DNA from: a virus
Virus record (IMG/VR): IMGVR_UViG_3300032265_002475
Coordinates: 5 to 64,004 of that record
Direction: 5' to 3' (one strand)
DNA: 64,000 bases
Shown: positions 45,716 through 63,201 of the stretch, one piece after another
Numbering within the stretch: the first letter of the stretch is position 1
Layout: the number at the start of each line of letters is the position of its first letter
The notes under the pieces: generated by a model
What the model saw: only the letters and a program-made list of their open reading frames with translations
Told to the model about the DNA's origin: nothing
Databases searched by the model: none
Translations under genes and position numbers: made by a program

Positions 45716-45756
45716 TAATGACATAAAGATAAGTTAAAATTTATGAATGGCCAAAC
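45716..45756 (-). promoter_or_regulatory. early promoter element (family A/B)
   Basis: ttaatgacataaagata...gccaaa. Confidence 0.55.
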
Positions 45757-45794
45757 TATACTTTTATTTATTATTTTATTGTTATTATTACTTA

Positions 45795-45835
45795 TTAATG
45801 ACATAAAGATAATTATGAATAAATGAATAGCCAAA
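45795..45835 (-). promoter_or_regulatory. early promoter element (tandem second copy)
   Basis: ttaatgacataaagataattatgaataaatgaatagccaaa. Confidence 0.5.
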
Positions 45836-45840
45836 CCATT

Positions 45841-46125
45841 TTAATCTTCTTTAGCTGTTTCTAAAGCGGCTGTATATGCACCTTTATTTATATTATCCAT
45901 TCCCATCCCTTCATATTTTAACAATGCATTACAAATATATTTATGGATTCCATTAATGTTTTTTATTTCTGCAATTGCTTTAACAATACTATTTTTGTCA
46001 GTATCATTAATGTTTTTATCATTAACAAAATCCGTAATGTATTTTTTTGCTACATTTACATCCTTCATTTTAAATACCCCATTACTGATCTGTTCAAAGA
46101 TTGATTTTAAATACTTTTGTTTCAT
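45841..46125 (-). CDS. small hypothetical protein
   Basis: ORF behind promoter element. Confidence 0.5.
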   Translation of the reverse strand: MKQKYLKSIFEQISNGVFKMKDVNVAKKYITDFVNDKNINDTDKNSIVKAIAEIKNINGIHKYICNALLKYEGMGMDNINKGAYTAALETAKED

Positions 46126-46150
46126 TTTTTATGTTGTTATTTTTAATAAT

Positions 46151-46191
46151 TTAATGACATAAAGATAATTATGAAATTATGAATTGCCAAA
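46151..46191 (-). promoter_or_regulatory. early promoter element
   Basis: motif. Confidence 0.55.
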
Positions 46192-46197
46192 CTTACT

Positions 46198-46350
46198 TTA
46201 CCACCTTAAAACAGCATTTGGATTGTTAGTGTTATGTTTATGAAATCTTGCACATTTACCTTTATGTGTGGTAGTACATGAGGCAAATATAATAATGCAA
46301 AAACAAATACCAATAATAATAATTAAAGCGTTTAAATAATTTTGTTTCAT
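46198..46350 (-). CDS. small putative lipoprotein (50 aa), not in ORF track
   Basis: ATG 46348-46350; MKQNYLNALIIIIGICFCIIIFASC signal with lipobox-like FASC; own promoter element upstream. Confidence 0.35.
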   Translation of the reverse strand: MKQNYLNALIIIIGICFCIIIFASCTTTHKGKCARFHKHNTNNPNAVLRW

Positions 46351-46361
46351 TTTTTAATAAT

Positions 46362-46407
46362 TTAATGACATAAAGATAAAAATGAATAGCTGAATAGCCA
46401 AGCCAAA
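46362..46407 (-). promoter_or_regulatory. early promoter element
   Basis: motif. Confidence 0.5.
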
Positions 46408-46434
46408 CAAAAATGGGGAGCTTTTAACTCCCCA
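46404..46434 (-). terminator. rho-independent terminator after gene 46450-46860
   Basis: minus strand GGGGAG-TTAAAAG-CTCCCC then ATTTTTGTTTGG. Confidence 0.6.
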
Positions 46435-46449
46435 CACCATGTAACATAA

Positions 46450-46860
46450 CTAACCAATCATTTCATTTACAATCTTATCTAACATTTCACTAACATTACC
46501 GTCCGTTTCTATAGTGGCCATAATTATTTTGGTCTGAGCGTCCTGATATGATACATTATTTACATGTACTTGTATGTCAGGTGCAGTATCACTTGCTTGA
46601 GTATTCCACCAAATATTACAATTGTAACCATTTTGTTTTAATTTAAAACTCAATGTTTCTCTTAATATGTTTAATTCTGAATTGATTTTATTACTACGTT
46701 GATTTATTTTTTTCAATTCATCAATTAACTTTTTAGCTTTGTTTGTTTCATTTTGTTTAGCAATAAATACTTTAGATGCAGTTGATGCTTTCACATTAGC
46801 ACGTCTCATCACTTCTTGACTTAATACATTTAACTGTAGATTACTTAATTTTTTAGCCAT
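46450..46860 (-). CDS. hypothetical protein
   Basis: ORF. Confidence 0.5.
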   Translation of the reverse strand: MAKKLSNLQLNVLSQEVMRRANVKASTASKVFIAKQNETNKAKKLIDELKKINQRSNKINSELNILRETLSFKLKQNGYNCNIWWNTQASDTAPDIQVHVNNVSYQDAQTKIIMATIETDGNVSEMLDKIVNEMIG

Positions 46861-46881
46861 GTTTATTATTGTTTTTGTTTT

Positions 46882-46922
46882 TTAATGCCATAAAGATAAG
46901 GCTGAATTTATGAAATGCCAAA
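46882..46922 (-). promoter_or_regulatory. early promoter element
   Basis: ttaatgccataaagataaggctgaatttatgaaatgccaaa. Confidence 0.5.
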
Positions 46923-47073
46923 TCTGCTTTTTAATCTGTTTTTTAAATCCCGTTATTTAATCTGTTTTTTAGGTGTGGTTTACTGTGGTTTTGCTTGCGC
47001 TGAATTTTGGCTGCCTTAACCTAAACACATTGATTAATGCCTGAGTGGATTAGATGATTTTTGGCGCGTTTAC

Positions 47074-47265
47074 TTACCAATTTTCATCCTGTGCTTCATC
47101 GTCTGGTGATTCGAGGGCAAACTCATCAGGCACATCCTCAAATGAATCAATTAATGTTTCAATGTAATCAGCAGGATCAGGTGCTTCATAAGCTTCAATA
47201 ATAATTTCAGCTAATTGCTCTTGAGTATAGTTAAGTAAGTTTTGTTTAATAATGTTTATATTCAT
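47074..47265 (-). CDS. small highly acidic protein
   Basis: 63 aa; Asp/Glu-rich C-terminal half. Confidence 0.45.
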   Translation of the reverse strand: MNINIIKQNLLNYTQEQLAEIIIEAYEAPDPADYIETLIDSFEDVPDEFALESPDDEAQDENW

Positions 47266-47483
47266 TATAATGTTTGTTTTAATAATGGTTTAAATTGGTT
47301 TACTATTTGTTCTGATGTGTTTTTTGCTTTACGAACCATATCTTCAAAACAATATGAACCCGTTTCGGCAAATGTGGTTTTTATAGTATCGTTCCACAAC
47401 GAGTTAGAAAATTTTAATTTATTGTCTATTGAAGTTAGATCCCTTACTAATTGTTCTTTTGCTAATGTTGATTTACGTTTCAT
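47265..47483 (-). CDS. small hypothetical protein
   Basis: ORF. Confidence 0.45.
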   Translation of the reverse strand: MKRKSTLAKEQLVRDLTSIDNKLKFSNSLWNDTIKTTFAETGSYCFEDMVRKAKNTSEQIVNQFKPLLKQTL

Positions 47484-47502
47484 CTGTTTTTTAATTTTGT
47501 TA

Positions 47503-47543
47503 TTAATGCCATAAAGATAAAATATTTTTTGTGAAAAACCAAA
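47503..47543 (-). promoter_or_regulatory. early promoter element
   Basis: motif. Confidence 0.5.
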
Positions 47544-47544
47544 T

Positions 47545-47750
47545 TTTCCTAAGAAGGTATATATTTATTATATGAGGACTGGACGTGTCCGTGCTGAATG
47601 TATATGCGATCCCGCCCCTCCTACTCCACCCACTCATTTACTGTTTTCCACATACACTTTATCTTACTTTTAATTTATTACCTCCCACTCCCAATGTGTA
47701 TATAGCTCGCTACATATTTCCAACTATTACATTTATTTTATTTTGTATTT
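47545..47750. other. C-rich (plus) / G-tract-rich (minus) noncoding island
   Basis: cccgcccctcctactccacccactc ... cctcccactccc in a ~30% GC genome; no ORF. Confidence 0.4.
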
Positions 47751-48154
47751 TATGAATTACGTGCCTTTAAAGATAGTTCATATAATTTATCTAACGTTTC
47801 ATGTGTGAATGTTTGGCACCCTACCGTAATATTATCTTTGGTGATTGTTGCTTTGTAATTGCTATTTAACGTGAGTTCTTTTTTAAATTGTTCTTTACCT
47901 TTACCTTTCATATATTGGGTAAATTCTTCTAATGTTATCCATCTATATTTAGATTCTTCTTTAGATATAGAACTCATTTGTGTTATTATATCACCATCCC
48001 AACAGTAATATGGAAATTGAGGATCTATAAGTTTATTTATCATTCCTCCATAAATAGATACTTCACAGTCAATAGCGAGTTTTAGTAATTCTTTTACTTC
48101 TGTGATTGATAATTCATGGTTAATTGCTACTTTGTCTTGAAAGTTATGTGTCAT
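47750..48154 (-). CDS. hypothetical protein
   Basis: ORF. Confidence 0.5.
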   Translation of the reverse strand: MTHNFQDKVAINHELSITEVKELLKLAIDCEVSIYGGMINKLIDPQFPYYCWDGDIITQMSSISKEESKYRWITLEEFTQYMKGKGKEQFKKELTLNSNYKATITKDNITVGCQTFTHETLDKLYELSLKARNS

Positions 48155-48164
48155 TATTTTTTGT

Positions 48165-48404
48165 TTATAATGTTTCTATTGCTAATTCTCCAAGTACAGA
48201 CATTAATTCAATGTGTGCATCATCACTTAATAGTTTAGTTCCATTAAATAGGTCTTGATATGTCACAGTTACTCCATGTATTTTATTTGCTTCTATAACT
48301 AAATCAAACCATTGTTCTGTACCCATTTCAACTTCACCGTCATGAACTAATTCAGGATAATGTTTTACAATTACGTTTTTGATTTTTTGTTGTGTGTTTG
48401 CCAT
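48165..48404 (-). CDS. small protein homologous to the C-terminal domain of 43161-44510
   Basis: KHYPELVHDGEVEMGTEQWFDL vs EEYPEIIEDGEIETGTEEWLFL. Confidence 0.5.
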   Translation of the reverse strand: MANTQQKIKNVIVKHYPELVHDGEVEMGTEQWFDLVIEANKIHGVTVTYQDLFNGTKLLSDDAHIELMSVLGELAIETL

Positions 48405-48419
48405 TGTTATTTTATTTAT

Positions 48420-48460
48420 TTAATGACATAAAGATAAGGTGGAAAAAATGAATAGCCAAA
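48420..48460 (-). promoter_or_regulatory. early promoter element (identical subfamily ggtggaaaaaatgaatagccaaa)
   Basis: motif. Confidence 0.55.
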
Positions 48461-48793
48461 TTAATTTTCATTATTTAATTCAAATTGTACACGTTCATTA
48501 AATAATGATTGCACATCTTCAAACGGTTGTGTCATCATTAATTGACGTAACATTTGTTCCTCCATATTCATTTCTTTAAGTAAATGTTGTGTTTTTTCAC
48601 CTGTTATTTCAGGATTAGATGATCTACACCATTCAGCATATAATAATTCAGCTTTATCATGTGGGGTTATGCCTTTTAATTCTAAATAATCATCATATTT
48701 TAGATTATGATTAATTACATTTCCTAATTCTACCAATATTAATTTTTTAACATTAGGTTCATTTAATAATTTTTTTAATGTTATATTTTTCAT
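48461..48793 (-). CDS. hypothetical protein
   Basis: ORF. Confidence 0.5.
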   Translation of the reverse strand: MKNITLKKLLNEPNVKKLILVELGNVINHNLKYDDYLELKGITPHDKAELLYAEWCRSSNPEITGEKTQHLLKEMNMEEQMLRQLMMTQPFEDVQSLFNERVQFELNNEN

Positions 48794-48796
48794 TTT

Positions 48797-49126
48797 TTAG
48801 TTATTATTTGATGTTGTTTCTTCAGTTACGTTTTCGTCAAGTACTTCTTCAATAATTGATTCAATTTTACTCAAATCTATCGAAACATCACTAAGTACTA
48901 TTGTATTATCACGTTCTAAATCAAAACTAGCTGAATCCATATCAACTACATCATCACTATCTAATTGGTTTAGTCTATTACTAATAACATAACGTATCTC
49001 ATCCGCTAATTCTTGTGTAATGCAGCTTTCACGTTTTACTTCATTAAGTAATTTTATGATATCATCTTTAGTGAAAATTGAACTTGGTGAGTCTTGTACT
49101 GTTTGTTTTAATTCTTGTAATTTCAT
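48797..49126 (-). CDS. acidic hypothetical protein
   Basis: ORF; Asp/Glu-rich. Confidence 0.5.
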   Translation of the reverse strand: MKLQELKQTVQDSPSSIFTKDDIIKLLNEVKRESCITQELADEIRYVISNRLNQLDSDDVVDMDSASFDLERDNTIVLSDVSIDLSKIESIIEEVLDENVTEETTSNNN

Positions 49127-49147
49127 AACTTTTATTATTTTTATTAT

Positions 49148-49188
49148 TTAATGACATAAAGATAAGGTGGAAAAAATGAATAGCCAAA
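49148..49188 (-). promoter_or_regulatory. early promoter element
   Basis: motif. Confidence 0.55.
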
Positions 49189-49226
49189 TTTATTTTAAAT
49201 TCCAAATTTTTCATTTTGTTACTTAT

Positions 49227-50048
49227 TTAGTTGTTTTTAACAATGTTGTTTATGATATCCATTGTTTCCCACGAAGTAGCAGTGTTAAAGTTAATTTCTA
49301 ATCTACCTAAAGAACCATCAGGATACACTTTCCACTTCGATGATATTCCATTTGCCATTTTGATTTTAACTGCATCGATTTCGTAACCTTGTTTTTCATA
49401 TGGTTCTTTTCTCCACTCTTTTATAGCTACTACCTCTGCTCCTGGATAAAGTGCTTGCATCTTAGCTACGGTAGCTTCAACTACACTAACTTGCTTTTTA
49501 GTTGCGTTTGTTTGAGCTTCGCGTTCATCACGCACCTCTTTTATTTTCTTGTTAATAGTGTCAGCTTTTGTTATAGCTTTATTTTCATATTTATAATCCA
49601 ATCCAAGTCCTGTTAAATACATTTTCCAGCCATTGTTAGTTCCTCTTGTATCCCATTTAGAATTATATACTACCTGAACCTTCACTCTTACGGTAAAACC
49701 ACCATTTACAATGGAAGCTTCTTTTTTGGTATGTGTTTCGCGATGAGCTACTTTATAAGCTCCATTTTCATCTTTGTTACCATAATCAAACACCACTTTT
49801 TCAAATTGATTTTCTCCGATATTCAACTGCCATCCTTTACCTAACTGTTTATGATATTCTGTAGCTGCTGCTATTTGCTCATCTTGAGTTTTGATAATTT
49901 TAGCAATTTCAGCCTTACAATCTACAATACCTCTTTCGATTTGTGCTTTGTTTTTGGCTTGCTTTTCAGCTTGTGCTAAAGCTTCTTTTTCACGGTTAAT
50001 TTTAATGATTTCTAATTCTGCTGGTGTTAATTCTAAAACTTGTGTCAT
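49227..50048 (-). CDS. hypothetical protein (273 aa)
   Basis: ORF. Confidence 0.55.
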   Translation of the reverse strand: MTQVLELTPAELEIIKINREKEALAQAEKQAKNKAQIERGIVDCKAEIAKIIKTQDEQIAAATEYHKQLGKGWQLNIGENQFEKVVFDYGNKDENGAYKVAHRETHTKKEASIVNGGFTVRVKVQVVYNSKWDTRGTNNGWKMYLTGLGLDYKYENKAITKADTINKKIKEVRDEREAQTNATKKQVSVVEATVAKMQALYPGAEVVAIKEWRKEPYEKQGYEIDAVKIKMANGISSKWKVYPDGSLGRLEINFNTATSWETMDIINNIVKNN

Positions 50049-50064
50049 AACTTTTATTATTTTA

Positions 50065-50102
50065 TTAACATAAAGATAAGGTGGAAAAAATGAATAGCCA
50101 AA
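50065..50102 (-). promoter_or_regulatory. early promoter element
   Basis: motif. Confidence 0.55.
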
Positions 50103-50231
50103 TTTTATCTAAATTCCAAATTCGATTACTAAATATAAAACACACGCTACAAAAGCTAGTGCTACTATTACTAATCCTGTGTCAATTGGTGCCCAATATT
50201 GTTTCATTGTATTTTATGTTAATTAAAATAG

Positions 50232-50294
50232 TAGGCAAAGTGAGAATTGAACTCACATTATCGCAATATCACACAAGTAAGGTGCTATTTACCC
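50232..50294 (-). ncRNA. short tRNA-like element (acceptor + T-arm, lacks a canonical D-arm)
   Basis: rc GGGTAAA..GTGAG-TTCAATT-CTCAC-TTTGCCT-A: T-arm plus 7-bp acceptor with two G-U pairs; only 63 nt. Confidence 0.2.
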
Positions 50295-50492
50295 GACCGT
50301 ATAAAAAACTACATCTGCCTTCTAAATGGGATACCTTGTCTCAAAAGTGTTATCCAGTACATTAACCCAAACCACTCAAATTTTAGAACTTTGAGAACAA
50401 TAGCCCCACCTCATCACAAAGGGTACTGAATAATGTTATTACTATTATTTGTTCAGTGTTAATCAGATGTAGTTTTAAAGAACGTTTTTGTG

Positions 50493-50582
50493 AAGTTGGT
50501 GGGAGATTTGAACTCCCATCTCTCATCATACAATGAGGCGTTACTCAATTGTGGTATTCATTCCCACTTACGCCAACCAACT
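50493..50582 (-). tRNA. tRNA-like gene, ~89 nt, non-canonical core; anticodon not resolvable by eye
   Basis: rc AGTTGGT-TG-...-GGGAG-TTCAAAT-CTCCC-ACCAACT-T: perfect 7-bp acceptor and canonical T-arm; D region has A14 A15 G18 G19; candidate anticodon stem CTCAT/ATGAG encloses only 6 nt. Confidence 0.4.
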
Positions 50583-50605
50583 TACCATTTTTCATAGGTG
50601 AATGA

Positions 50606-51310
50606 TTATTTCAACTTATTTAATATTTTAATTATAGTTGCTTCATCCACTGTCCATTTATGGGCACTGTCTTCTGCTTTAGCTCCACATCCAACCCAAA
50701 CTGCAGCTTTGTCATTTTGAGCTATTACTAACGCAGCTTCCCAAAATTCTTTAGTAAACTTATATCCGGAAATGGTAGTTTTATTTTTTTCAAATTCAAC
50801 TTCATAACCTCCTATTCTAATAGTTTCTTCTTTTTCATAGGCAGGTTCAAACCAAATGTCTAAAACACCCATACTTTTAGCTTCATCAATTGCACCGTCT
50901 TGATCCATAGTGAAAAATAAATTATCATGACCTCCAACATTAAATAAAGTATCAGCCCAACTAATATGACCACGTTTTAATGCAATTTTACCTTTTTCTG
51001 TTAATTTATAACCAACTAATTTTTTATTCATGTTATTATTGTTTGTTTTTGGAGTTGGATTACTCATTTTTAAAAACTCATTCCAAGTAATTCTACACTC
51101 TTTTGAAAAACAATCAAAACTAGCTACAGTTCCGTTATAATTCCAACTTCCTGTTGATTCATCAAAACTGATGTATAATCGGGTTGGGTTGTTAATTTCG
51201 AAATAAGAAAGATGATTTTCATCTACTGTTTCACCTGATATAGTGCTAATATAATTTAACACTCGTTTAAAGTTTTTTGCGTTAGTTACGCATACATTCC
51301 ATTTATTCAT
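50606..51310 (-). CDS. hypothetical protein (234 aa)
   Basis: ORF. Confidence 0.5.
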   Translation of the reverse strand: MNKWNVCVTNAKNFKRVLNYISTISGETVDENHLSYFEINNPTRLYISFDESTGSWNYNGTVASFDCFSKECRITWNEFLKMSNPTPKTNNNNMNKKLVGYKLTEKGKIALKRGHISWADTLFNVGGHDNLFFTMDQDGAIDEAKSMGVLDIWFEPAYEKEETIRIGGYEVEFEKNKTTISGYKFTKEFWEAALVIAQNDKAAVWVGCGAKAEDSAHKWTVDEATIIKILNKLK

Positions 51311-51833
51311 GATTTTTAAATTTTACTATTGTTACTTTACAATCTTTTAATTCCTGTTGAATAATTGTTCTTACATCCCTATACAATCCTTCTTGAGGTG
51401 TATGATATTTATCCCATACACCCCCTGCTATACCACATCCAATTTGCGGAAGTCCAATATGTTTACCTCTAAATTGTACATTCATTTTACGTAAACATAA
51501 AGTTAGTGCTTCATAATCTAAATTAGCTCCTGGTTGGTATTGTGTATAAGCATTTACTACAACTATTTCAGGTTCATTAGCATTGTTTTTATATTCACTT
51601 AATAACCAATTAGTATTTTCACCTACTACAACGGTTTCAAAATCAATATTACCTAACTTTGAAAAACTAATTAAATGCTCCATTTCAAATTTATCGGTAT
51701 GAAATGTTTTAGACATTACTGCTGCTATTCCTGCCTTTTGTAAACAAAAACAATTACACCCATGAACAATCACATCAAAAGAACCTTGTAATGCTAATTG
51801 TATTAAATCTCCTTCTATTTCTTGATAATTCAT
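51303..51833 (-). CDS. macro-domain (ADP-ribose binding/processing) protein
   Basis: start at internal ATG 51831-51833 (MNYQEIEGD) just downstream of promoter element; GDLIQ...DVIVHGCN...GIAAVM and IGLPQIGCGIAGGVW resemble macro-domain motifs. Confidence 0.5.
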   Translation of the reverse strand: MNYQEIEGDLIQLALQGSFDVIVHGCNCFCLQKAGIAAVMSKTFHTDKFEMEHLISFSKLGNIDFETVVVGENTNWLLSEYKNNANEPEIVVVNAYTQYQPGANLDYEALTLCLRKMNVQFRGKHIGLPQIGCGIAGGVWDKYHTPQEGLYRDVRTIIQQELKDCKVTIVKFKNHE

Positions 51834-51841
51834 TTTATTAT

Positions 51842-51882
51842 TTAATGACATAAAGATAAAAAAGAAAACCTGAAAAGCCAAA
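51842..51882 (-). promoter_or_regulatory. early promoter element
   Basis: motif. Confidence 0.55.
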
Positions 51883-52077: not shown

Positions 52078-52305
52078 TTAATTATTTTCAAATCCAATAT
52101 GTTTTTGCACAATTGTATTTAATTCTTTATAAAAATTTGGGTGAATAAAACCATATTCCCATCCTTTTGGGTTTTGTTCTATATCTTTAAGTGTGGTTTC
52201 TAATGCCCAAACAATTCGTTCACGTAATAATGCTGAATTAATAGTGCCTTCTATTTCTTTAAGTAAGCTTTTTAGCATTTGTTCGTTTGTTTTTAATTTT
52301 ACCAT
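52078..52305 (-). CDS. small hypothetical protein
   Basis: ORF. Confidence 0.45.
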   Translation of the reverse strand: MVKLKTNEQMLKSLLKEIEGTINSALLRERIVWALETTLKDIEQNPKGWEYGFIHPNFYKELNTIVQKHIGFENN

Positions 52306-52322
52306 GTTGTTATTTTATTTTA

Positions 52323-52360
52323 TTACTATAAAGATAAAAATGAATTTTGGAAAAGCCAAA
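52323..52360 (-). promoter_or_regulatory. early promoter element
   Basis: motif. Confidence 0.5.
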
Positions 52361-52399: not shown

Positions 52400-52600
52400 T
52401 TATATTTCTTCAGATTCTCCAATTAGTTTTAATATTTGTTTTGTAGATTCAGTTACTTCAAAACCACCATTATTGTGTCCTGTGTGTTTTATAATAGTGA
52501 ATGTATCACTATCATCTCTATAAATAGCTTGAATGCCATTTACATTTAAAACCATTTTATGGTTTTTTAACCTACGATTAGTTACAATAATAAATCTCAT
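52400..52600 (-). CDS. small hypothetical protein
   Basis: ORF. Confidence 0.45.
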   Translation of the reverse strand: MRFIIVTNRRLKNHKMVLNVNGIQAIYRDDSDTFTIIKHTGHNNGGFEVTESTKQILKLIGESEEI

Positions 52601-52609
52601 ATTTATAAT

Positions 52610-52650
52610 TTAATGACATAAAGATAATGCGGAAAATCTGAAAAGCCAAA
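52610..52650 (-). promoter_or_regulatory. early promoter element
   Basis: motif. Confidence 0.55.
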
Positions 52651-52682
52651 GAAAAAGGTGATGTAATTTTCATACATCACCC
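52648..52682 (-). terminator. rho-independent terminator after the RecA-fold ATPase gene
   Basis: perfect 9-bp stem ggtgatgta-attttca-tacatcacc, followed on the minus strand by TTTTTCTTTGG. Confidence 0.6.
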
Positions 52683-52690
52683 GTTCTTCA

Positions 52691-53557
52691 TTAACAACAA
52701 TCAACAACATCGTTACCTATTTTTTCAGGATTTGTTACTTCCATTTCAGGTTCTATTTTTTCTTTTGTAATTTTTCCATAATAAATGCTATTATTTGTTA
52801 ATTGATAACTAAATCTAGCATTAGTATGCCCGTTTCTATTTTTAGAAAACATCATATATGTTTCATTTAATTCTTTATCAAGTTTCACTTCACATACAGC
52901 ATCAACTAAATGTTTTAGTTTATTACTACCTACAGCATCACCAGCTTTTGTTTGTTGTTGTATAAGTAAAAATGATGTAAATTTACCACCTATATTTTCA
53001 CCTGAATTATGTTTTACACATAAATCAACTAACCAAGATTCCGCTGTTTTTCGGTCCCAACGATTATCATCGCGTACACTATCTAATACTTCCGCTATTG
53101 AATCAATTAGTATTAGATCATATCCTTTATTTAATATTTGTTCTACAACATCTTTTGCGTTGTATTGAATATAATCTGTCATAAATAACGTTTCAACAAT
53201 ACCAAATTGTGGAAATCGTTGTGTATATTTAAACATTTGCTTTTTACCCATTTCACCACTTATAAATAAACATTTATATTCTTTTTTATTTTGAATACCT
53301 GCTATTAAATCTAACATTAATGTTGTTTTACCTATTCCTGGATCTCCAGGAACCATAATGTTAGTAGCACATGGTGTTCCACCTTCGTAACTAATAAGTT
53401 CATCTAATGGTAATCCACTTTTCATAGTATTTAACATTCGTGGATCAATTTCTAATTGATTTAGTTTCATTACTTCACTAAATTCAATAATTGATGGTAT
53501 TTGTGGTACCATTGGTTGGCTAAGGTGTGGTCTTCCTGGTTTACGTTGTTCTTCCAT
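52691..53557 (-). CDS. RecA-fold P-loop ATPase (Sak4 / DnaB-C-terminal-like)
   Basis: Walker A GDPGIGKTT, Walker B DLILIDSI. Confidence 0.5.
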   Translation of the reverse strand: MEEQRKPGRPHLSQPMVPQIPSIIEFSEVMKLNQLEIDPRMLNTMKSGLPLDELISYEGGTPCATNIMVPGDPGIGKTTLMLDLIAGIQNKKEYKCLFISGEMGKKQMFKYTQRFPQFGIVETLFMTDYIQYNAKDVVEQILNKGYDLILIDSIAEVLDSVRDDNRWDRKTAESWLVDLCVKHNSGENIGGKFTSFLLIQQQTKAGDAVGSNKLKHLVDAVCEVKLDKELNETYMMFSKNRNGHTNARFSYQLTNNSIYYGKITKEKIEPEMEVTNPEKIGNDVVDCC

Positions 53558-53578: not shown

Positions 53579-53619
53579 TTAATAACATAAAGATAAAAAG
53601 GAAAGTCTGAAAAGCCAAA
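53579..53619 (-). promoter_or_regulatory. early promoter element
   Basis: motif. Confidence 0.55.
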
Positions 53620-53785: not shown

Positions 53786-54181
53786 TTATCCATAAACTAT
53801 TTCACCATCAAATAAAACTGACTGTATTATTACATCTGCTGTTTCAGCATCGTCTTGTTCAAGAATCATGTTAAATAAATGTTGTTTTTCAGTTTTATTA
53901 ACACGTTCATATATTAACTCTAATGTTACAATATGTTCTTCATTATCTGATTCAGTATCTACAAACCATATTTTATTACCATCTCTTAATATTTGCATTA
54001 AGCAATCTTCATAACAAATAACTTTATTAGGTTTTGATTCTCGTAATTTCTTATTAGCTAATGCATAATGCATAATGTCATATTCTAAATCTAAACCATA
54101 ATTACTAATATAACCTAACCCATTACATAAAGCGTTATAAAAATATAATTCTGATTCTTCAGTTGTTAAGATAATTTGCAT
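53786..54181 (-). CDS. hypothetical protein (start at internal ATG 54179-54181)
   Basis: weak promoter variant at 54193-54222 lies inside the listed 5' extension. Confidence 0.45.
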   Translation of the reverse strand: MQIILTTEESELYFYNALCNGLGYISNYGLDLEYDIMHYALANKKLRESKPNKVICYEDCLMQILRDGNKIWFVDTESDNEEHIVTLELIYERVNKTEKQHLFNMILEQDDAETADVIIQSVLFDGEIVYG

Positions 54182-54436
54182 TTTTAATAATATTAATGGA
54201 AAATGAAAAGTCAAACTTTTTAAGAAAATCACCCGACTTTACCCCGGTGAATTTGTTATAGCAGTCATAATATATGATCTATAACGGATACCCTAAATTA
54301 GCCTAGAACATGTTAGGGGCACTCAACCTGTGTTAATTTATTGACAACCATTGATACTATCTTTGGAATACATAATAAAACCCTTACTCATGTGTAATAA
54401 GTTTTATTAAGGTAATAAATCATTGACTACGTTGGT

Positions 54437-54742
54437 TCAATTAATTAATTCTTCTGAATATGTAATATCTTTCACATCTTCTTCATTGAATTGTTGAACA
54501 TATCCACTTAACATATTTATAAAATCATATCCTAATGTCTCTAAATCATTTATAAGTAATTCCCATTCCTCGAATTTATTAGCATATGTCTTCATTGCTA
54601 AATCATTTTCAATAACAAAATGAAAAAATGCATATAAACTAACATTCATAAATTCACCATTTGATAATTTACATGTTAACCAACTATCTTCGTTTTTAGT
54701 TAAATGTTTTTCATATGATGTAACTGTTAAACTATTTTTCAT
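54437..54742 (-). CDS. hypothetical protein
   Basis: ORF. Confidence 0.45.
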   Translation of the reverse strand: MKNSLTVTSYEKHLTKNEDSWLTCKLSNGEFMNVSLYAFFHFVIENDLAMKTYANKFEEWELLINDLETLGYDFINMLSGYVQQFNEEDVKDITYSEELIN

Positions 54743-54757
54743 AAATTTAATTTCTTG

Positions 54758-54792
54758 TTATAAAGATAAAAAAGAAAATCTGAAAAGCCAAA
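54758..54792 (-). promoter_or_regulatory. early promoter element
   Basis: motif. Confidence 0.55.
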
Positions 54793-54830: not shown

Positions 54831-54868
54831 TTACAAATAAATTAAGGGGGACTGATTTAGTCCCCCTC
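54831..54868 (-). terminator. rho-independent terminator after the SPFH gene
   Basis: agggggact-gattt-agtccccct 8-bp GC stem followed on the minus strand by TAATTTATTTGT. Confidence 0.55.
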
Positions 54869-56483: not shown

Positions 56484-56500
56484 TTTATTTTTTATTTTTG

Positions 56501-56602: not shown

Positions 56603-56780
56603 ATTTTACTCTTATTCTCCTTTCTAATGAAAAATAAAAATCCCGTTATTATGGTTATGACTGCCATACTAAAGGTAGCTGTTTTTGCAGCTGAAAAAGT
56701 CATCAATTACTATTTCAGGTAAGAACTGAAATACTCTTTTTTCTTTTGTTTTTATTTTGTGTATCATCTATATTATTTAT

Positions 56781-56816
56781 AATATAAAGATAAAAAGGAA
56801 AATCTGAAAAGCCAAA
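56781..56816 (-). promoter_or_regulatory. early promoter element upstream of tRNA-like gene 56501-56602
   Basis: motif. Confidence 0.55.
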
Positions 56817-56820
56817 CTTT

Positions 56821-56952
56821 TTATTTATCTTCATCAAACATATCAGACCCATCATAATCAGGGTGTTCTTCCATCATTTTTGAAATTCCTTTTGCGTATA
56901 CAGTTGATACTATTATTGACACAACTAACACTAATAAAATTATAATTTTCAT
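56821..56952 (-). CDS. small signal/TM peptide (43 aa), not in ORF track
   Basis: MKIIILLVLVVSIIVSTVYAKG... Confidence 0.3.
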   Translation of the reverse strand: MKIIILLVLVVSIIVSTVYAKGISKMMEEHPDYDGSDMFDEDK

Positions 56953-57387: not shown

Positions 57388-57609
57388 TTATTCACAATTT
57401 TATACCATATCTTGTTAATCAACCATTTAGCTGATTCCCAAAGTATGATTGTTAGTAATATTTTAATCATTTTTTACCGCATTTAGGACAATATTCTTCA
57501 TTTCTCCTATCAAACCACGAATTACAACATAATTTCCATAATTCACAATAACCACTATTCATAGATGTATCTTCTATCATTTCTTTAACCTTTTCTTCAA
57601 ACTGTGCTG

Positions 57610-57888
57610 TCATATTCTTGATTTTAATTCAGTTAATACTTCTTTTAAATGATTTAATCTTGGATTAATAATATTCACGTATAACAATTTTGGAGCATTA
57701 GGTACTTGTCTTATATCAAATATCATTGGCTCTAAAAGTTTATATTCTTCAAGTCTTGCTTCTATTTCTAAAATAGCACATTGTGTTGCAGAATAATTAC
57801 CTTCTTCTCTTGTTTTCCAATTAAAACAAGCTAAATACTTCTCAACTATTTTATCACATTTTTCTTTTATTGTCATTTTAAAATTCAA
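57610..57888 (-). CDS. hypothetical protein
   Basis: ORF in overlapping chain. Confidence 0.45.
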   Translation of the reverse strand: MNFKMTIKEKCDKIVEKYLACFNWKTREEGNYSATQCAILEIEARLEEYKLLEPMIFDIRQVPNAPKLLYVNIINPRLNHLKEVLTELKSRI

Positions 57889-58138
57889 TTTGATTAATTA
57901 CTGATGTTATAGATTCTTTGTTTATTGTCATTCTTGGTTCTAACCATAAACCAGCTGTATTTTTTAATTCAGCATTTTCAGCAGCTAATTCTAATAATTT
58001 TTCTGCAAATTCTTTCATTGCTTGTTTAAGTCTATCATATTCAGTTCCTTCAAAACCATCTCTATTATGAACTTGTTTTAATGCTTCTAATGACTTAAAA
58101 TGATTACTTTTTAATATTTCATCTACAATTATTTTCAT
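57878..58138 (-). CDS. hypothetical protein
   Basis: ORF in overlapping chain. Confidence 0.45.
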   Translation of the reverse strand: MKIIVDEILKSNHFKSLEALKQVHNRDGFEGTEYDRLKQAMKEFAEKLLELAAENAELKNTAGLWLEPRMTINKESITSVINQIEF

Positions 58139-58413
58139 AAGTTTATTTCTTTGTTTAAATATTCTTGTAATTTTTGATTATATATAGAAAAATCTCCAGT
58201 TTTCTTCCACATATTACATTGATTAAAACTATCTATTACAATAGGTTCTAATGGTTTAAGTTTAAATTGAACACTTTCTAAATAAGCTATTTTCCAAGTT
58301 AATTCATCATTATCTTTATTTAAAGATTGTTGATGTTTTAAGAACTTAATCTGAGAGGAAATCCAATCAGTTTCTATTACTGATAAATCTTTTATTTTAG
58401 TCATTGTTTTCAA
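58135..58413 (-). CDS. hypothetical protein
   Basis: ORF in overlapping chain. Confidence 0.45.
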   Translation of the reverse strand: MKTMTKIKDLSVIETDWISSQIKFLKHQQSLNKDNDELTWKIAYLESVQFKLKPLEPIVIDSFNQCNMWKKTGDFSIYNQKLQEYLNKEINL

Positions 58414-58633
58414 TAAAATTTAATAACCATTTTAAATTATTTACTTTTCTTTCTAAATCTTTTTTTGGTATTTTTGTTAAAGACGATTCTCTACTTATTA
58501 TTGTACCAAGTCTATATGTAACATAAACCCATTGTATATTTTCATATTTATTTTTATAACTATGAAATTTATAGATTTCATCTCCTTCTCCACCTACATA
58601 TACTAAATCATTTTGTTTAAATTTTTGTTTCAT
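58397..58633 (-). CDS. hypothetical protein
   Basis: ORF in overlapping chain. Confidence 0.45.
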   Translation of the reverse strand: MKQKFKQNDLVYVGGEGDEIYKFHSYKNKYENIQWVYVTYRLGTIISRESSLTKIPKKDLERKVNNLKWLLNFIENND

Positions 58634-58809
58634 TTCTTTATTGGTTTAGGTGGTTCTGCCATTTTGCTTCTTTCTTCTTTTATAGAGCAAGTTTTACCAT
58701 CATATTCACAACAGCATCTTGCACCCATTCCAAATAATGAACGCTTAATATTTTTATTAGCGCACCAAGCACCATTATCATTAAATTTACAATTTATTTT
58801 TAATATCAT
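58630..58809 (-). CDS. small Cys-rich protein (59 aa), not in ORF track
   Basis: ATG 58807-58809 overlaps upstream stop, TGA overlaps downstream ATG (ATGA coupling at both ends); seven Cys. Confidence 0.4.
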   Translation of the reverse strand: MILKINCKFNDNGAWCANKNIKRSLFGMGARCCCEYDGKTCSIKEERSKMAEPPKPIKK

Positions 58810-59240
58810 TTAATTAAATTTTTAAGACAATATTCAAAAGCAGAATTTAAAGCTTCTTGTGGATTATTAAAATAACTTTTATCACTATTTTGGATTTCTA
58901 TACTTTCTTGTTCTATATTTTTTAAAGTAGATACGTTGGCAGTAAAGTAATTTTTAAAAGAAATATTACTATAATATCCATCAATAGTAACCCAAATACC
59001 ATGTTTCTCTAACAACCAATTTTGAACACTTTGATATAATGGAATACCAATAAAATCTTCATGTAATTTTTGACTAATAATATCTTTAATAGTTAAAGTA
59101 TCATTTTCATCATCTGTACAACCAAATCTCCACATTGTATGACCATGTGGATTACCTTCTTTAAGGCAAGGTTCATCAAAACCTAATCTTTTAAGTTCTA
59201 AAGCGATTTTATAAGGAACAAAGTTATCTTTTACATTCAT
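58806..59240 (-). CDS. hypothetical protein
   Basis: ORF. Confidence 0.5.
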   Translation of the reverse strand: MNVKDNFVPYKIALELKRLGFDEPCLKEGNPHGHTMWRFGCTDDENDTLTIKDIISQKLHEDFIGIPLYQSVQNWLLEKHGIWVTIDGYYSNISFKNYFTANVSTLKNIEQESIEIQNSDKSYFNNPQEALNSAFEYCLKNLIK

Positions 59241-59292
59241 AAGTTAATATTTTTAGTTGGTTTACCATCTATCCAGATAGTTGTGTATTGTT

Positions 59293-59589
59293 TCATAGTT
59301 TATTAAATACTAAGTCTTTCATTGGATTAGCAAATTCTGTAAATATTTTATTAATATCTTTTCCTATTGATACATTATTCACAAAACATTCAATATCAGA
59401 TTCTTTAAAATATTTAACAAATGCTTGAATAATATAAGGACAAGCAGATACTAATATAGTAGTATCTTCTAATTTTAGGTTTTTAACAAATTCTACTCTT
59501 TGTTTTGGTGTCTTATTATCTTCAGGATAATAAATACTGTTTTCAATAAATTCTCTATTATCTTGGTAATGTATTTTTATTTGTTTCAT
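59293..59589 (-). CDS. hypothetical protein
   Basis: ORF. Confidence 0.45.
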   Translation of the reverse strand: MKQIKIHYQDNREFIENSIYYPEDNKTPKQRVEFVKNLKLEDTTILVSACPYIIQAFVKYFKESDIECFVNNVSIGKDINKIFTEFANPMKDLVFNKL

Positions 59590-59590
59590 T

Positions 59591-60130
59591 TTATTTGAAA
59601 AAATTAATTATTTTATCTTTAACACCGTTTTGTTTAATACCTTCCTGCGATGAAGGAGTCCAAACAAAATTAGTCAAACCCCAATCCCTATAAAATTCAC
59701 CATATGAACTATGTTTAACGTGAAGACCCATGTGTAAATCATCAACAGCAACCCAATGTGTTACTTCTGGGTGTTGCTTTAACCATTCAAGTATTTCAAG
59801 TGAACGTTGTTGCTCTAAATCAAATGTTTTATCGTATGGGTATCCTTCTTGAATTGGAACAGATGAAGGTGTATAGTCAATTGGTGACTTTTTAACATTT
59901 CTCATCTTATACAATTCCTGCATTTGATCTAGTGTAGTGTGATATTTCCAATCCGAGCTAACTACTATTTCACAATCTGTTTCTTCAATGATTTCATTTA
60001 ACACCTTGATTGCTTTATCATTGAATCTATCAAATTCACTGTCAAGTCCTTCCTTGTTTTTAAATCTACTACCCCATTCGGATGCTAAACATATAACACC
60101 ATCATGGTCTAAAAATATTATTTTTTTCAT
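59591..60130 (-). CDS. HAD-like hydrolase (putative phosphatase)
   Basis: IIFLDHDGVI resembles HAD motif I DxDx(T/V); IVVSSD motif II-like. Confidence 0.35.
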   Translation of the reverse strand: MKKIIFLDHDGVICLASEWGSRFKNKEGLDSEFDRFNDKAIKVLNEIIEETDCEIVVSSDWKYHTTLDQMQELYKMRNVKKSPIDYTPSSVPIQEGYPYDKTFDLEQQRSLEILEWLKQHPEVTHWVAVDDLHMGLHVKHSSYGEFYRDWGLTNFVWTPSSQEGIKQNGVKDKIINFFK

Positions 60131-60131
60131 G

Positions 60132-60166
60132 TTATAAAAATAAAAAAGAAAGCCTGAAAAGCCAAA
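60132..60166 (-). promoter_or_regulatory. early promoter element
   Basis: motif. Confidence 0.5.
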
Positions 60167-60174
60167 CTTTTAAA

Positions 60175-60846
60175 TTAATTTAATCCAAATGAAATCGGTT
60201 TATGAGCATAATTGTATTGTTCATTTAATGAAGAAGCGTTGATGAAGATAGTGTTGATGTTGTGCATAATATTAGGACTATCTACAAACCCATATCCAGT
60301 ATGGATGTGACCACAGCAATGTATTTTTGGTCGTACTCTCATAATTGCGTTATACAAATCAACACAACCTAAATGATCTCCTCTACGACTATCTACATCA
60401 TCTAATATTCCAAATACTGGACCGTGAGTTAAGAGTATATCTAATCCGGTAGGAATTTTATTCCAATGTTGTTGTATGTCTTCACCTGGATCAGCATTGA
60501 ATGCCCAATCGTTAAATCTAGGTTGCCAAGGTGAACCATAAATCTTCAATCCATCAAGTTCAATAAATGAATCTTGTATATAGGTTATGTTTGGAAATGC
60601 ACTTAAAATTTCTTTTATTTCATTGGGTCTTTCTTGAAATCCAAAGTCGTGATTACCAGCTATGAATACTTTGTGAGCGAAGTTGTCAAGACTATTAAAC
60701 CACTTACAAAATTCTTTTATTTCGTGATTGTATCCCATAGATGAAATGTCTCCAGCATGAAATAAAAAATCACCACCATGATCTAAATCTCTAGTTAGTT
60801 GTCTATGTTTGTTGTGTGTGTCTGATATAAATGTTAGTTGTTTCAT
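60175..60846 (-). CDS. calcineurin-like metallophosphoesterase
   Basis: ISDTH, HAGDIS, AGNHDFG, LLTHGP, CCGHIHTGYG. Confidence 0.7.
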   Translation of the reverse strand: MKQLTFISDTHNKHRQLTRDLDHGGDFLFHAGDISSMGYNHEIKEFCKWFNSLDNFAHKVFIAGNHDFGFQERPNEIKEILSAFPNITYIQDSFIELDGLKIYGSPWQPRFNDWAFNADPGEDIQQHWNKIPTGLDILLTHGPVFGILDDVDSRRGDHLGCVDLYNAIMRVRPKIHCCGHIHTGYGFVDSPNIMHNINTIFINASSLNEQYNYAHKPISFGLN

Positions 60847-60851
60847 AATTG

Positions 60852-61085
60852 TTAAATTTCGTTATCTAAATAAATAGTCGGTGGATCAAATGATACTATA
60901 GCTGAATAATAAACATCATTCATTAGTAAATCTACTTTTTTAAGTAGAGGCTCTAATTCAGAAATATCATTTATCTCTATAGAATAAGCACCTGGTTCAC
61001 CTTTCCACATATCTTCCCATTTAGCACCTATTTCTTTTAAAACTTTATCGTTTACCCTTTGATTAAAATCTATTTGAAATTTCAT
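60852..61085 (-). CDS. small hypothetical protein
   Basis: ORF. Confidence 0.45.
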   Translation of the reverse strand: MKFQIDFNQRVNDKVLKEIGAKWEDMWKGEPGAYSIEINDISELEPLLKKVDLLMNDVYYSAIVSFDPPTIYLDNEI

Positions 61086-61087
61086 AA

Positions 61088-61318
61088 TTATTTAAATTTT
61101 AATGTATCACCAATTTTATAATTACCTATTGGCATCCTAAATTCTACATCACTTTTATTAAAACCTGCTTTATCAATATAATCTAAAGAAAATAAAGCAG
61201 TTTTAGTATTCACATCATAATCACTAATATTAATAATTACAAAAGGATATTTAGGATTAACTTGATTACAAGCTGCAAATACAATAGCTATTAAAGCTAA
61301 TAATGTTAATTTTTTCAT
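61088..61318 (-). CDS. small lipoprotein
   Basis: MKKLTLLALIAIVFAAC lipobox. Confidence 0.5.
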   Translation of the reverse strand: MKKLTLLALIAIVFAACNQVNPKYPFVIINISDYDVNTKTALFSLDYIDKAGFNKSDVEFRMPIGNYKIGDTLKFK

Positions 61319-61587
61319 ATTTCTATTAATGTATCTTTTAATAATGTTATTGTTTTTACTTGATTAGCTATTGTTCCTGAACAAAATACTTGACCATCTT
61401 CTTCTAATTTAGGTGTACACCAATTTTGTCCTGTTATAGTATCTGTAGTATTATCATAATATTTCACTTTAATAGTCCACTTATGAGTGTAATTCTTTTC
61501 ATGTATATCTGGACCACAACTACCAAATATAAATAATAGTAAAATAGGTGTATATTTAAACCAATTTAATAATTTAGTATTTTTCAT
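61315..61587 (-). CDS. small lipoprotein
   Basis: signal peptide + FGSC lipobox. Confidence 0.5.
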   Translation of the reverse strand: MKNTKLLNWFKYTPILLLFIFGSCGPDIHEKNYTHKWTIKVKYYDNTTDTITGQNWCTPKLEEDGQVFCSGTIANQVKTITLLKDTLIEI

Positions 61588-61880
61588 TGTTTTTTGTTTA
61601 AAAAGTTTTCTGCTTTGGTGATTGTTTCTTCATTGTCTTGTGCATCGTCGGGGGCTAAAACATAATCATCGGTAATGCTTTTTACCCTTTCAGTTAATTC
61701 TCTAATCAACTCCACCGCTTCTTGCTGATGAATCTTTTTTACAATGTCGGAGTTTGCACCAAAGTTTATTGCTGAAATAATATCGTGTCTGCAATACTCA
61801 TTATCATTTGTTGCAGGACATCTATAAGGTTCAGCGTAATTTTTGATAGCTTCTTCCAATTCTTGTTCAAGGTTGTTCAT
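61584..61880 (-). CDS. hypothetical protein
   Basis: ORF. Confidence 0.45.
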   Translation of the reverse strand: MNNLEQELEEAIKNYAEPYRCPATNDNEYCRHDIISAINFGANSDIVKKIHQQEAVELIRELTERVKSITDDYVLAPDDAQDNEETITKAENFLNKKQ

Positions 61881-61881
61881 G

Positions 61882-62475
61882 TTATTGTAATTTTAAAAAT
61901 TTATGCAATTCTGATAATAAAAACATTGCCCTGTCTTTATCTAATATTATTTTAGTTTCTTGATAAGTCCCAGCACCATAAATTGTTATCCTATCTTCTT
62001 CTATCTTTGAAGGAATTATATTAACCTTTTTTTCTTCCTTCGGCAGCCATTTGATTTGCAAAATGTTGTTGACCATCCAATAGTCTATACCATTTGTATT
62101 GGTACTTATATCAAACTTCGGCAACTCCTTCCATTTATTCCAATAATCCACAAACTCTTTCACTCTTTCTTCTGAAAAATAGCAGTTAGGTGTGATTGTT
62201 GGGGAGTTAGTGGTGATTACTTTTTTAAGATATTTTCCACTTGTTGTAAAGTCTTCTAACAAAAAACATATAGAATTATTTCTAACATCAAACATGGGTT
62301 CTCCTTTATTTACTATTAAAAATTCTTCATCGCTGCAAAGAACGAGTAGTTTGTTTTGATAAAATCCTGTGTTAATTTTAGCAGTTTCTTCGCAATAAAG
62401 TAGATTTTCTATACCCTTGTCTAATCTAATATTACTTGGCTCGTTGGTGTCTATAAGTTTTAAAAATGCGTTCAT
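61882..62475 (-). CDS. hypothetical protein
   Basis: ORF. Confidence 0.5.
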   Translation of the reverse strand: MNAFLKLIDTNEPSNIRLDKGIENLLYCEETAKINTGFYQNKLLVLCSDEEFLIVNKGEPMFDVRNNSICFLLEDFTTSGKYLKKVITTNSPTITPNCYFSEERVKEFVDYWNKWKELPKFDISTNTNGIDYWMVNNILQIKWLPKEEKKVNIIPSKIEEDRITIYGAGTYQETKIILDKDRAMFLLSELHKFLKLQ

Positions 62476-63110
62476 TGTTGTTTGTTTTTTTTATTTAATT
62501 CGTGATGATCAATTGGTAAAGTTAATTTAGCTATTGGTTGATTGTTCATAATGCTCAATATCTCTTGCAAATCAATTGGTTTTAAGTTATTACCTTCACA
62601 ACCAACATCCATTGATTTACCTCCATGTAATCTTTGGTCAGGCATTAAGTGTACGTGTCCATGTAAGTGGATTACACCATTATTCATTCCATTCCAACTT
62701 GCAATTGGATAGTGCATACAAACAAATCTTTGTTTTTCAACACTTGTTTTATTGTGTTCTATACGGACATCTAAATACAAATATTCGTTAATTGATTTAA
62801 ACAAGGATTGAATATTTTCTTTGTTGTTTTGTATGTGGTGATCGTGATTACCTAATACTAAATGTATGTTTTTACAAACTAACCGTTCTCTGAATTCTCT
62901 TATTTTATTAAAACCACCAAACGACCAATCACCTAAATGAATTAATATATCATCTTCTTTAACACAATCGTTTAAATTTTCTACCAATGTGTTATTCATA
63001 GTTTCTAACGAGTCAAACTGCCTTGTTAGTCTTTCGGCATTAGTCCATTTAGTAGTTGTTGAACAAATGTTGCTATGAGAATAATGTGTTAAGTATCCGA
63101 GGTAAACCAT
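62472..63110 (-). CDS. calcineurin-like metallophosphoesterase (second copy)
   Basis: LIHLGDWSFGG, VLGNHDHH, HGHVH. Confidence 0.6.
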   Translation of the reverse strand: MVYLGYLTHYSHSNICSTTTKWTNAERLTRQFDSLETMNNTLVENLNDCVKEDDILIHLGDWSFGGFNKIREFRERLVCKNIHLVLGNHDHHIQNNKENIQSLFKSINEYLYLDVRIEHNKTSVEKQRFVCMHYPIASWNGMNNGVIHLHGHVHLMPDQRLHGGKSMDVGCEGNNLKPIDLQEILSIMNNQPIAKLTLPIDHHELNKKNKQQ

Positions 63111-63160
63111 AATCTGGTATCCTCGGATAAATTTATTTTAAGTGTTGACATTTTATTATT

Positions 63161-63201
63161 TTAATAATATAAAGATAAAAAGAAAAATCTGAAAAGCCAA
63201 A
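63161..63201 (-). promoter_or_regulatory. early promoter element
   Basis: motif. Confidence 0.55.

Follow-up and report, generated by a model that had tools for sequence, protein, structure and literature searches.

A repeated element of probable Bacteroidota sigma-A promoter type in the small-gene block of an uncultured T4-like phage

The early promoters of phage T4 occur in dozens of copies, carry an extended sigma-70 consensus and out-compete the promoters of the host right after infection. The sigma-A promoters of the Bacteroidota have ~19-21 nt between their -33 and -7 elements, the -33 TTTG often being dispensable. Two further sets of observations form the background to what follows: first, T4-like phages contain PeSLs, repeated strong early promoters of host type that sit in hyperplastic regions of ORFan genes (PMC2839356; PMC4122927) and, second, the -7 box of sigma-A promoters lies at -12 to -5 in both Flavobacterium psychrophilum and F. 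johnsoniae, with T-12, A-11, T-8, T-7 and T-6 as its defining positions (PMC6847099; PMC9723704). Here we consider a repeated element of about 45 nt in 64,000 nt of viral DNA (IMG/VR record IMGVR_UViG_3300032265_002475, positions 5 to 64,004; the whole stretch is called the window below), most copies of which stand before small ORFan genes near its right end. The element is real and non-random. It is likely, moreover, that its copies are strong early (and early/middle) promoters, each with an A/U-rich leader, which would be read by the host RNA polymerase carrying the primary sigma factor of the Bacteroidota (sigma-A, Bfr type).

The window has 26% G+C and 95% of it codes on the minus strand, such that the coding strand is the minus strand, and box positions and predicted transcription starts (+1) are given on it. 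The full coding-strand pattern, TTTGG(C/T)-N18-TA(T/C)(C/T)TTTAT, has 20 copies in the window; in the form TTGG[CT]-N18-TA[TC][CT]TTTAT all 20 belong to the minus strand, the plus strand has none, and each spans exactly 32 nt. The generic pattern TTG-N20-TAnnTTTA is likewise found 20 times on the coding strand, against four times on the opposite strand and a shuffle mean of 1.75. When the core is taken in plus-strand notation as ATGACATAAAGATA with at most two mismatches, there are 16 matches where 3.55 are expected, a number reached in 0 of 100 shuffles. A 56-nt weight matrix made from the copies contains ~41 bits; on it the 17 early copies reach 39-63 bits and three weaker ones 32-37 (32-63 overall), and the next-best site in the window gets 18. 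The same repeat family was found again by an independent repeat finder.

Seventeen of the copies lie within 45,719-63,201, an 18-kb ORFan block, and the three weaker ones are spread over the other 46 kb, which bears out the recurrence at 45.7-63.2 kb proposed in a first-pass annotation and adds the outlying copies to it. In plus coordinates, the first T of TTGG in the block copies is at 63200, 60165, 56815, 54791, 53618, 52649, 52359, 51881, 50101, 49187, 48459, 47542, 46921, 46401, 46190, 45834 and 45754, and in the outlying copies at 37862, 19647 and 159. Every copy is intergenic and co-directional with the genes, the densest stretch being 45.7-54.8 kb. Two of the annotation's details do need revision. 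The description 'one per early gene' is overstated, as ~46 open reading frames (ORFs) share the 17 promoters (~2.9 genes each, in units of 1 to ~12 genes), and the supposedly variable gap (N10-14 in plus-strand notation, N19-20 on the coding strand) is actually invariant, being 13 nt in the former notation and TTTGGC-N18-TATCTTTAT in the latter.

The anatomy of the element is that of two boxes held at a fixed distance within a longer conserved segment. An A-rich stretch (-50 to -38) is followed by the -33 element TTTGGC, extended to GCwwTTCA; TTTG-N20-TA is present in 18/20 copies and CTTG takes the place of TTTG in two, with no change in spacing. The 20 nt between TTTG and the -7 box include a T-rich spacer of fixed length. 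The -7 box itself is TA(T/C)(C/T)TTTA at -12 to -5, its first seven positions, TA(T/C)(C/T)TTT, being present in 20/20 copies, after which come a start region (T)GTC-A, with +1 on the A, and a leader of AUUAAAUUAUUAAAA type, ~20 nt long and without a Shine-Dalgarno sequence. The +1 follows from the register established by 5'-end mapping in Flavobacterium (PMC9723704; PMC6847099), and in that register it is an A in all 20 window copies and in 30/30 copies genome-wide. The predicted 5' untranslated regions (5'UTRs) are mostly 11-30 nt long (median ~20), as compared with a median of 24 nt in F. psychrophilum (PMC9723704), and two copies put +1 on or beside the A of the ATG, in other words in a leaderless arrangement.

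Information content is limited to ~-38 to +8, about 46 nt. Pairwise identity between copies is 77% over the 44-nt core and 64% within the 18-nt spacer, falling to 32-36% in the 60-nt flanks where random windows give 30%; that conservation reaches beyond the two boxes, as had been suggested, is therefore real. The proteins encoded downstream of the copies are not paralogs. With flanks no more alike than random windows and no paralogy among the genes, it is the element itself that is kept, not a by-product of gene duplication, and duplication of whole cassettes is ruled out as the source of the similarity. A structured RNA or hairpin promoter was also rejected, there being no hairpin potential within the elements (z-scores -1.1 to +1.7) and no match to them in Rfam.

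The elements can be compared with sigma-A promoters of the Bacteroidota. The shared features are a TTTG at about -33, TA..TTT at -12 to -6, 20 nt between the two, a predicted purine +1 five nt past the box and a short 5'UTR without a Shine-Dalgarno sequence; the positions that define the -7 element (T-12, A-11, T-8, T-7, T-6) are all occupied accordingly in 20/20 copies. In F. psychrophilum the most highly expressed promoter class, SM2, has a TTTG at -33 and, 3' of its -7 box, an extension rich in C+A (PMC9723704), and the phage elements have both the TTTG and a C/A-containing extension in the same place. In the rows of F. psychrophilum Table S2 covered here, the 8-mers TATCTTTA (at ogt1, in a leaderless TATCTTTAAATTATG arrangement resembling the window copy at 60165) and TATATTTA, identical to boxes of the phage, are mapped sigma-A -7 boxes. 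There are also differences. Every phage copy has A, in place of the consensus G, as the last base of its -7 box, conservation of spacer and start region goes far past that seen in host promoters, and the full 45-nt motif occurs in none of the representative bacterial genomes scanned. The earlier assignment to a -33 TTTG / -7 TAnnTTTG architecture holds for the layout, the copies being co-directional with the genes and intergenic with a predicted A at +1, and does not hold for the box, which is TAnnTTTA throughout. Other host-type promoters fit less well: sigma-70 promoters are not enriched in the window (128 found, 135 expected), and a sigma-54 reading of TTGGC was rejected by inspection, as there is no GC 12 nt past the GG and the start would precede the -7 box.

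If the copies act as this comparison suggests, the host holoenzyme would fire them upon infection, and the small ORFan genes at 45-63 kb would be transcribed in units of 1-12 genes, some of them ended by hairpin terminators. Weaker variants would drive replication and metabolic genes elsewhere in the genome, while late genes would use another signal, ATATTTATA. The high similarity of the copies would then reflect selection for maximal strength of promoter and leader, in combination with gene conversion or copying among neighbours.

The relatives of the phage point to a host of the same phylum. No near-identical known phage turned up when 44 kb of the window were compared by Megablast with 50,697 phage records. 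The nearest cultured relative is Flavobacterium phage vB_FspM_immuto (NC_055915), the baseplate wedge protein of which is 47% identical and which is matched by 27/107 window proteins in conserved order. Immuto, too, contains a family of this type: 33-35 TTG-N20-TAYnTTTA elements, reading AGTTGC-..-TTC-TAT(A/C)TTTAGGTATCAATAATTAAAAC, lie on the coding strand and are concentrated in the small-ORFan block syntenic with that of the window. The two families have in common the TTG-N20-TA(T/C)nTTTA geometry, the A at -5, a place among ORFans in a block upstream of the baseplate module, start regions that are conserved and followed by a leader of AAUUAAAA type, and the late motif ATATTTATA at orthologous genes; they differ in sequence (AGTTGC..TTC.TATATTTAGGTATCAATAATTAAAAC in immuto) and in the spacer, which in immuto is variable and often forms a terminator hairpin, and the weight matrix of the window does not detect the immuto elements. 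As far as our literature searches show, neither the immuto promoter family nor such families in Flavobacteriia phages generally have been described. Flavobacterium phage 11b has too few promoters for an informative comparison. A third relative, PP395634.1, is recorded as 'Microcystis phage Mel-JY01' and has a baseplate wedge 46% identical to that of the window; at 120-166 kb its small genes are preceded by canonical TTG-N20-TAnnTTTG (12 on the coding strand, 3 on the other). Bacteroidota-type promoters are unexpected for a cyanobacterial host, and this host label may deserve checking.

In addition, a Shine-Dalgarno core (GGAG or GAGG) lies upstream of only 1/96 window genes, and adenine peaks before start codons at -12 (0.74), -6 (0.68), -3 (0.67) and -13 (0.61), the same positions at which adenine promotes translation in F. 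johnsoniae (PMC6847099). Together with immuto and its analogous promoter family, these features back the host phylum that had been proposed, and the host probably belongs to the Flavobacteriia within the Bacteroidota. The extended motif, which the first-pass annotation had proposed to look for in host promoters, was found in none of 185,579 representative bacterial genomes: a pattern scan of these yielded 48 single matches at chance level, 18 of them from Bacteroidota, and a best weight-matrix score of 28 bits. The motif is therefore private to the phage and not a copied host promoter. A separate observation from the bacterial side concerns a Bacteroidaceae metagenome-assembled genome (JAFTVE010000024.1, 4940-5150; also loci L025, L044 and L053), in which an 80-nt unit is repeated in tandem upstream of a LysR-type regulator gene; each unit contains a Bacteroides-type promoter, CTTGGCTTTTCAC..TATCTTTATGG or ..TATCTTTGCAG, with A and G variants of the -7 box in adjacent repeats.

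More of the same genome was recovered elsewhere. A scan of IMG/VR gave only two other contigs with strong copies, and a metagenome scan added none. These contigs match immuto regions outside the coverage of the window, and they have elements identical to those of an ENA scaffold whose sequence overlaps the end of the window (1790/1791 positions identical). They were accordingly rejected as independent relatives, being additional parts of the same genome or of a nearly identical one. The genes that follow the element on them belong to GroES/GroEL, glycosyltransferase, ribonucleotide reductase and queuosine regions. Just past the right end of the window (L137 3352-5783, the same genome) is a cluster of 21 tRNA genes, with three further promoter copies beside it within the same 9 kb. 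At its right end the window itself contains an RNA ligase gene (63217-63774, truncated at the edge; 382 aa in L137) and, within 60175-63110, two metallophosphoesterase genes; with the neighbouring tRNA cluster these resemble a gene set of tRNA-repair type of the sort seen in T4-like phages.

The spacers of the copies fall into classes. Both subfamilies originally quoted are present, GGTGGAAAAAATGAATAGCC exactly three times, and there are at least three spacer classes overall. Class A1, with spacer CAGATTTTC, occupies the upstream half of the block and the tRNA region; class A2, with spacer CAAAAATTC, is scattered before replication and metabolic genes and has weaker -7 variants; and class B, with TATTCAT.., is restricted to 45.7-50.1 kb. 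Similarity between copies drops with distance (rho 0.29, permutation p 0.02) and the classes are clustered by position, which fits local copying; the classes might also be temporal. The regulated or phage-specific recognition that the first-pass annotation suggested for the subfamilies would be one reading of this pattern, and copying between neighbours would yield the same clustering. Class B spacers (for example 45799-45835) have a quasi 8-nt periodic make-up, TATTCATT|TATTCATA|ATTATCTT|TATGTCAT, which is not the helical repeat.

In the coordinates that follow, the end of each copy is the first T of TTTG and the start is the predicted +1 A, all on the minus strand. The upstream half of the block begins with a class A1 copy (TTTGGC..TATCTTTA) at 63165-63201, which heads a 7-gene unit with a phosphoesterase gene (62472-63110) as its first member. 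It is followed by a copy with the -7 variant TATTTTTA at 60130-60166, heading a unit of ~12 genes, where the predicted +1 is the A of the ATG of gene 59591-60130 (a leaderless arrangement). Five further copies of class A1 are those at 56780-56816 (heading a unit of ~5 genes), 54756-54792 (before gene 54437-54742, 5'UTR 14 nt), 53583-53619 (before a RecA/AAA-like ATPase gene, 52691-53557, 5'UTR 26 nt), 52614-52650 (before gene 52400-52600) and 51846-51882; between the last two lies a copy with the spacer variant CCAAAATTC at 52324-52360, before gene 52078-52305. The copy at 51846-51882 precedes a phosphatase-like gene, called as ORF 51303-51851 from an ATG that falls within the -7 box; the true start is likely the ATG 17 nt past +1. 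More generally, the ATG in TATCTTTATGTC makes false ORF starts or small ORFs at 51851, 52603-52710, 56715-56855 and 47503-47637, two of the promoter-derived 'proteins' match each other and locus L003 in BLAST, and gene callers will mis-start genes at promoter copies.

Further along, three class B copies with the identical spacer TATTCATTTTTTCCACCT lie at 50066-50102, 49152-49188 and 48424-48460, preceding genes 49227-50048, 48797-49126 and 48165-48404, respectively. The most divergent early copy, TTTGGT with spacer TTTTCACAAAAAATATTT, is at 47507-47543 before gene 47265-47483. The remaining block copies are of class B': 46886-46922 (before gene 46450-46860), 46366-46402 (before gene 46198-46350), 46155-46191 (before gene 45841-46125) and a tandem pair 80 nt apart, of which the upstream half is at 45799-45835 and the downstream half at 45719-45755, both before gene 45247-45669 and the latter with a 5'UTR of 50 nt. 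Outside the block, a weaker copy (TTTGGT..TATTTTTA, 32 bits) at 37827-37863 precedes gene 37403-37816, just after the endolysin gene; a weaker class A2 copy (TACCTTTA) at 19612-19648 lies 1 nt from the ATG of a DnaG-type primase gene, 18673-19611; and a class A2 copy at the window edge, 124-160, drives a gene that runs out of the window. A degenerate relic at 54182-54215, before gene 53786-54181, consists of a -33 box and spacer, TTTGACTTTTCATTTTCC, fused to a ATTAATATTATTAAAA leader and has no -7 box.

Terminator-like hairpins are enriched in the window (13 against 4.8 expected) and three of them, all on the minus strand, abut promoters. The hairpin at 54844-54868, resembling an intrinsic terminator with 10 pairs (6 G-C), closes the ~5-gene unit upstream of the promoter ending at 54792. 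That at 52656-52682 directly precedes the promoter ending at 52650, its T-tail entering the -33 TTTGG, and that at 46413-46435 stands in the same relation to the -33 region of the promoter ending at 46402.

The structural region had been described as almost free of the element and driven otherwise, perhaps by a phage sigma factor. Only three copies lie outside the block, and the late genes have another motif. This motif, ATATTTATA, is found 14 times on the coding strand, exclusively within 4-45 kb and never in the early block, mostly 10-25 nt ahead of the start codons of structural or late genes; minus-strand examples are at 44884-44892, 38775-38783, 35315-35323, 32793-32801, 30163-30171, 23040-23048, 17876-17884, 15913-15921, 5638-5646 and 4014-4022. 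In immuto it stands before the terminase, sheath, tube, hub and orthologous genes (16 on the coding strand, 1 on the other), and it is a candidate late promoter comparable to TATAAATA of T4. The sigma factor, on the other hand, was not confirmed: no sigma factor or RNA polymerase was detected among ~100 window ORFs, and no match to the MotA or AsiA Pfam families among the ~90 that were scanned. Between the early block and the baseplate module there are also ~8 paralogous minus-strand genes for leucine-rich-repeat proteins (LRR_4, LRR_8; window 39209-45004 and 20087-20446), which have short N-terminal segments in common and may be variable receptor-binding or host-interaction proteins.

Several points weigh against a host-read sigma-A promoter. 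The start sites, strength, timing and sigma factor, as well as any role in recombination, are predictions from sequence. The G at -5 is 'nearly invariant' in F. johnsoniae, where the host consensus is TAnnTTTG (PMC6847099), and yet the phage has A at this position in 20/20 window copies, in all 30 genome-wide and in ~34/35 immuto copies. Among 23 of the 1,095 mapped sigma-A promoters in F. psychrophilum Table S2, G is found in 17/23 and A in only 4/23. The canonical TTG-N20-TAnnTTTG occurs 0 times on the coding strand of the window and once in immuto, the extended motif is absent from the bacterial genomes scanned, and the spacer is conserved far beyond the needs of a host promoter. An exclusive bias of this kind could mean recognition by something other than the unmodified host holoenzyme.

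The strongest rival explanation builds on precisely these points. It holds that the -5 A, the extended -33 box and the spacer, as found in two Flavobacteriia phages, amount to a phage-private code, which would be read by a phage sigma-like factor or by a Bacteroidota RNA polymerase retuned by an injected or very early phage protein. T4 provides the precedents, with Alt and with the appropriation of sigma by MotA/AsiA at middle promoters, and a box TTTGGCTTTTCA lies 12 nt upstream of the -7 element, presumably the same position as that of the T4 MotA box. The spacer classes could then be temporal classes. Nevertheless, we regard this explanation as unlikely. Beyond the lack of any sigma, RNA polymerase, MotA or AsiA domain in the window ORFs, none is annotated in immuto; and the 8-mers ending in A are themselves genuine sigma-A boxes in the F. 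psychrophilum entries covered, such that G is a consensus and not an obligation, and the A-box is a legitimate minority sigma-A box. Moreover, Mel-JY01 has the canonical G at the same N20 spacing, so the clade is not bound to A, and one founder copy with gene conversion can give the uniformity, in keeping with the fall of similarity with distance. The uniform A may, in other words, reflect descent from one founder with homogenisation just as it may reflect functional discrimination. A private code, if real, would give the Bacteroidota their first promoter-discrimination system of the Alt or MotA/AsiA kind, with preference over the TAnnTTTG promoters of the host, and spacer classes A1, A2 and B would be its temporal classes.

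Rather less probable is that the elements are primarily recombination cassettes of PeSL type, ~45-nt homology patches for the excision, insertion and swapping of ORFans to which promoter function would be secondary. PeSLs do act in this way in T4-like phages (PMC2839356; PMC4122927), the copies here are concentrated in a small-ORFan block almost without immuto homologs between syntenic modules, three are joined to terminator hairpins (in immuto a hairpin overlaps the -33 region of many copies), and there is one relic with an internal deletion and one tandem pair. On the other side, 14/17 copies are without a stem-loop, the defining part of a PeSL, conservation falls exactly on the positions that determine a promoter, at an exact distance to +1 and start codon, and no variant strains came to light, the other early-block assemblies being 99.8-99.9% identical (two ~100-nt stretches did not align and are taken as scaffold gaps). 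A cassette role is, in any case, compatible with promoter function. Very improbable, finally, is a single-subunit or virion RNA polymerase encoded by the phage (T7-like, N4-like or crAss-like): promoters of such enzymes are typically long and nearly identical (23-40 nt), which would account for the long, highly conserved sequence, and for several of the large proteins in the window (795, 628, 536 and 443 aa) no family could be detected, but the element has a two-box structure with sigma-type spacing and no hairpin of the N4 type, no DFDxD or NADFDGD-type motif is present in the large window proteins, PDB sequence searches with four of them gave no match, the unassigned ones occupy terminase, portal and similar positions by synteny with immuto, the 1,870-aa protein is structural (homologous to an immuto baseplate-region protein and without RNA polymerase motifs), and no such polymerase is annotated in immuto.

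The preferred reading of the element as a Bacteroidota sigma-A promoter would have practical uses. The promoter layout, the fact that Shine-Dalgarno sequences are missing and the adenine pattern together offer a host assignment from sequence only for an uncultured 26%-GC phage, and the copies are compact modules of promoter and leader, probably very strong, for genetic tools in Flavobacteriia, where few exist.

Set against known systems, the family is a real yet expected feature of large lytic phages. As in the PeSLs, a near-consensus early promoter of host type, with an AT-rich region upstream, is repeated through a hyperplastic small-ORFan region of a myovirus with T4-like baseplate and head genes, and some copies are joined to terminator hairpins. 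Unlike the PeSLs, which have the sigma-70 -35/-10 layout, the window elements use the -33/-7 layout of the Bacteroidota; and since an adjacent stem-loop, the defining feature, is present at only 3/17 window copies, they are not members of that group. Recombination is known for the PeSLs of T4-like phages, and the repeats here could additionally serve as homology patches for ORFan shuffling, as PeSL cassettes do. With the early promoters of T4 they share a multitude of copies conserved well past the two sigma boxes, a presumed role in out-competing host promoters as soon as infection begins, and a late motif that is short and separate; they differ in host phylum and sigma specificity, and no counterpart of Alt, MotA or AsiA was identified in the window. 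The overall picture is that of a Bacteroidota -33/-7 layout with a genomic behaviour like that of T4 early promoters, most closely resembling that of PeSL cassettes, by which the T4 arrangement of dense early promoters in ORFan regions and a separate short late motif would extend to distant T4-like phages of another phylum.

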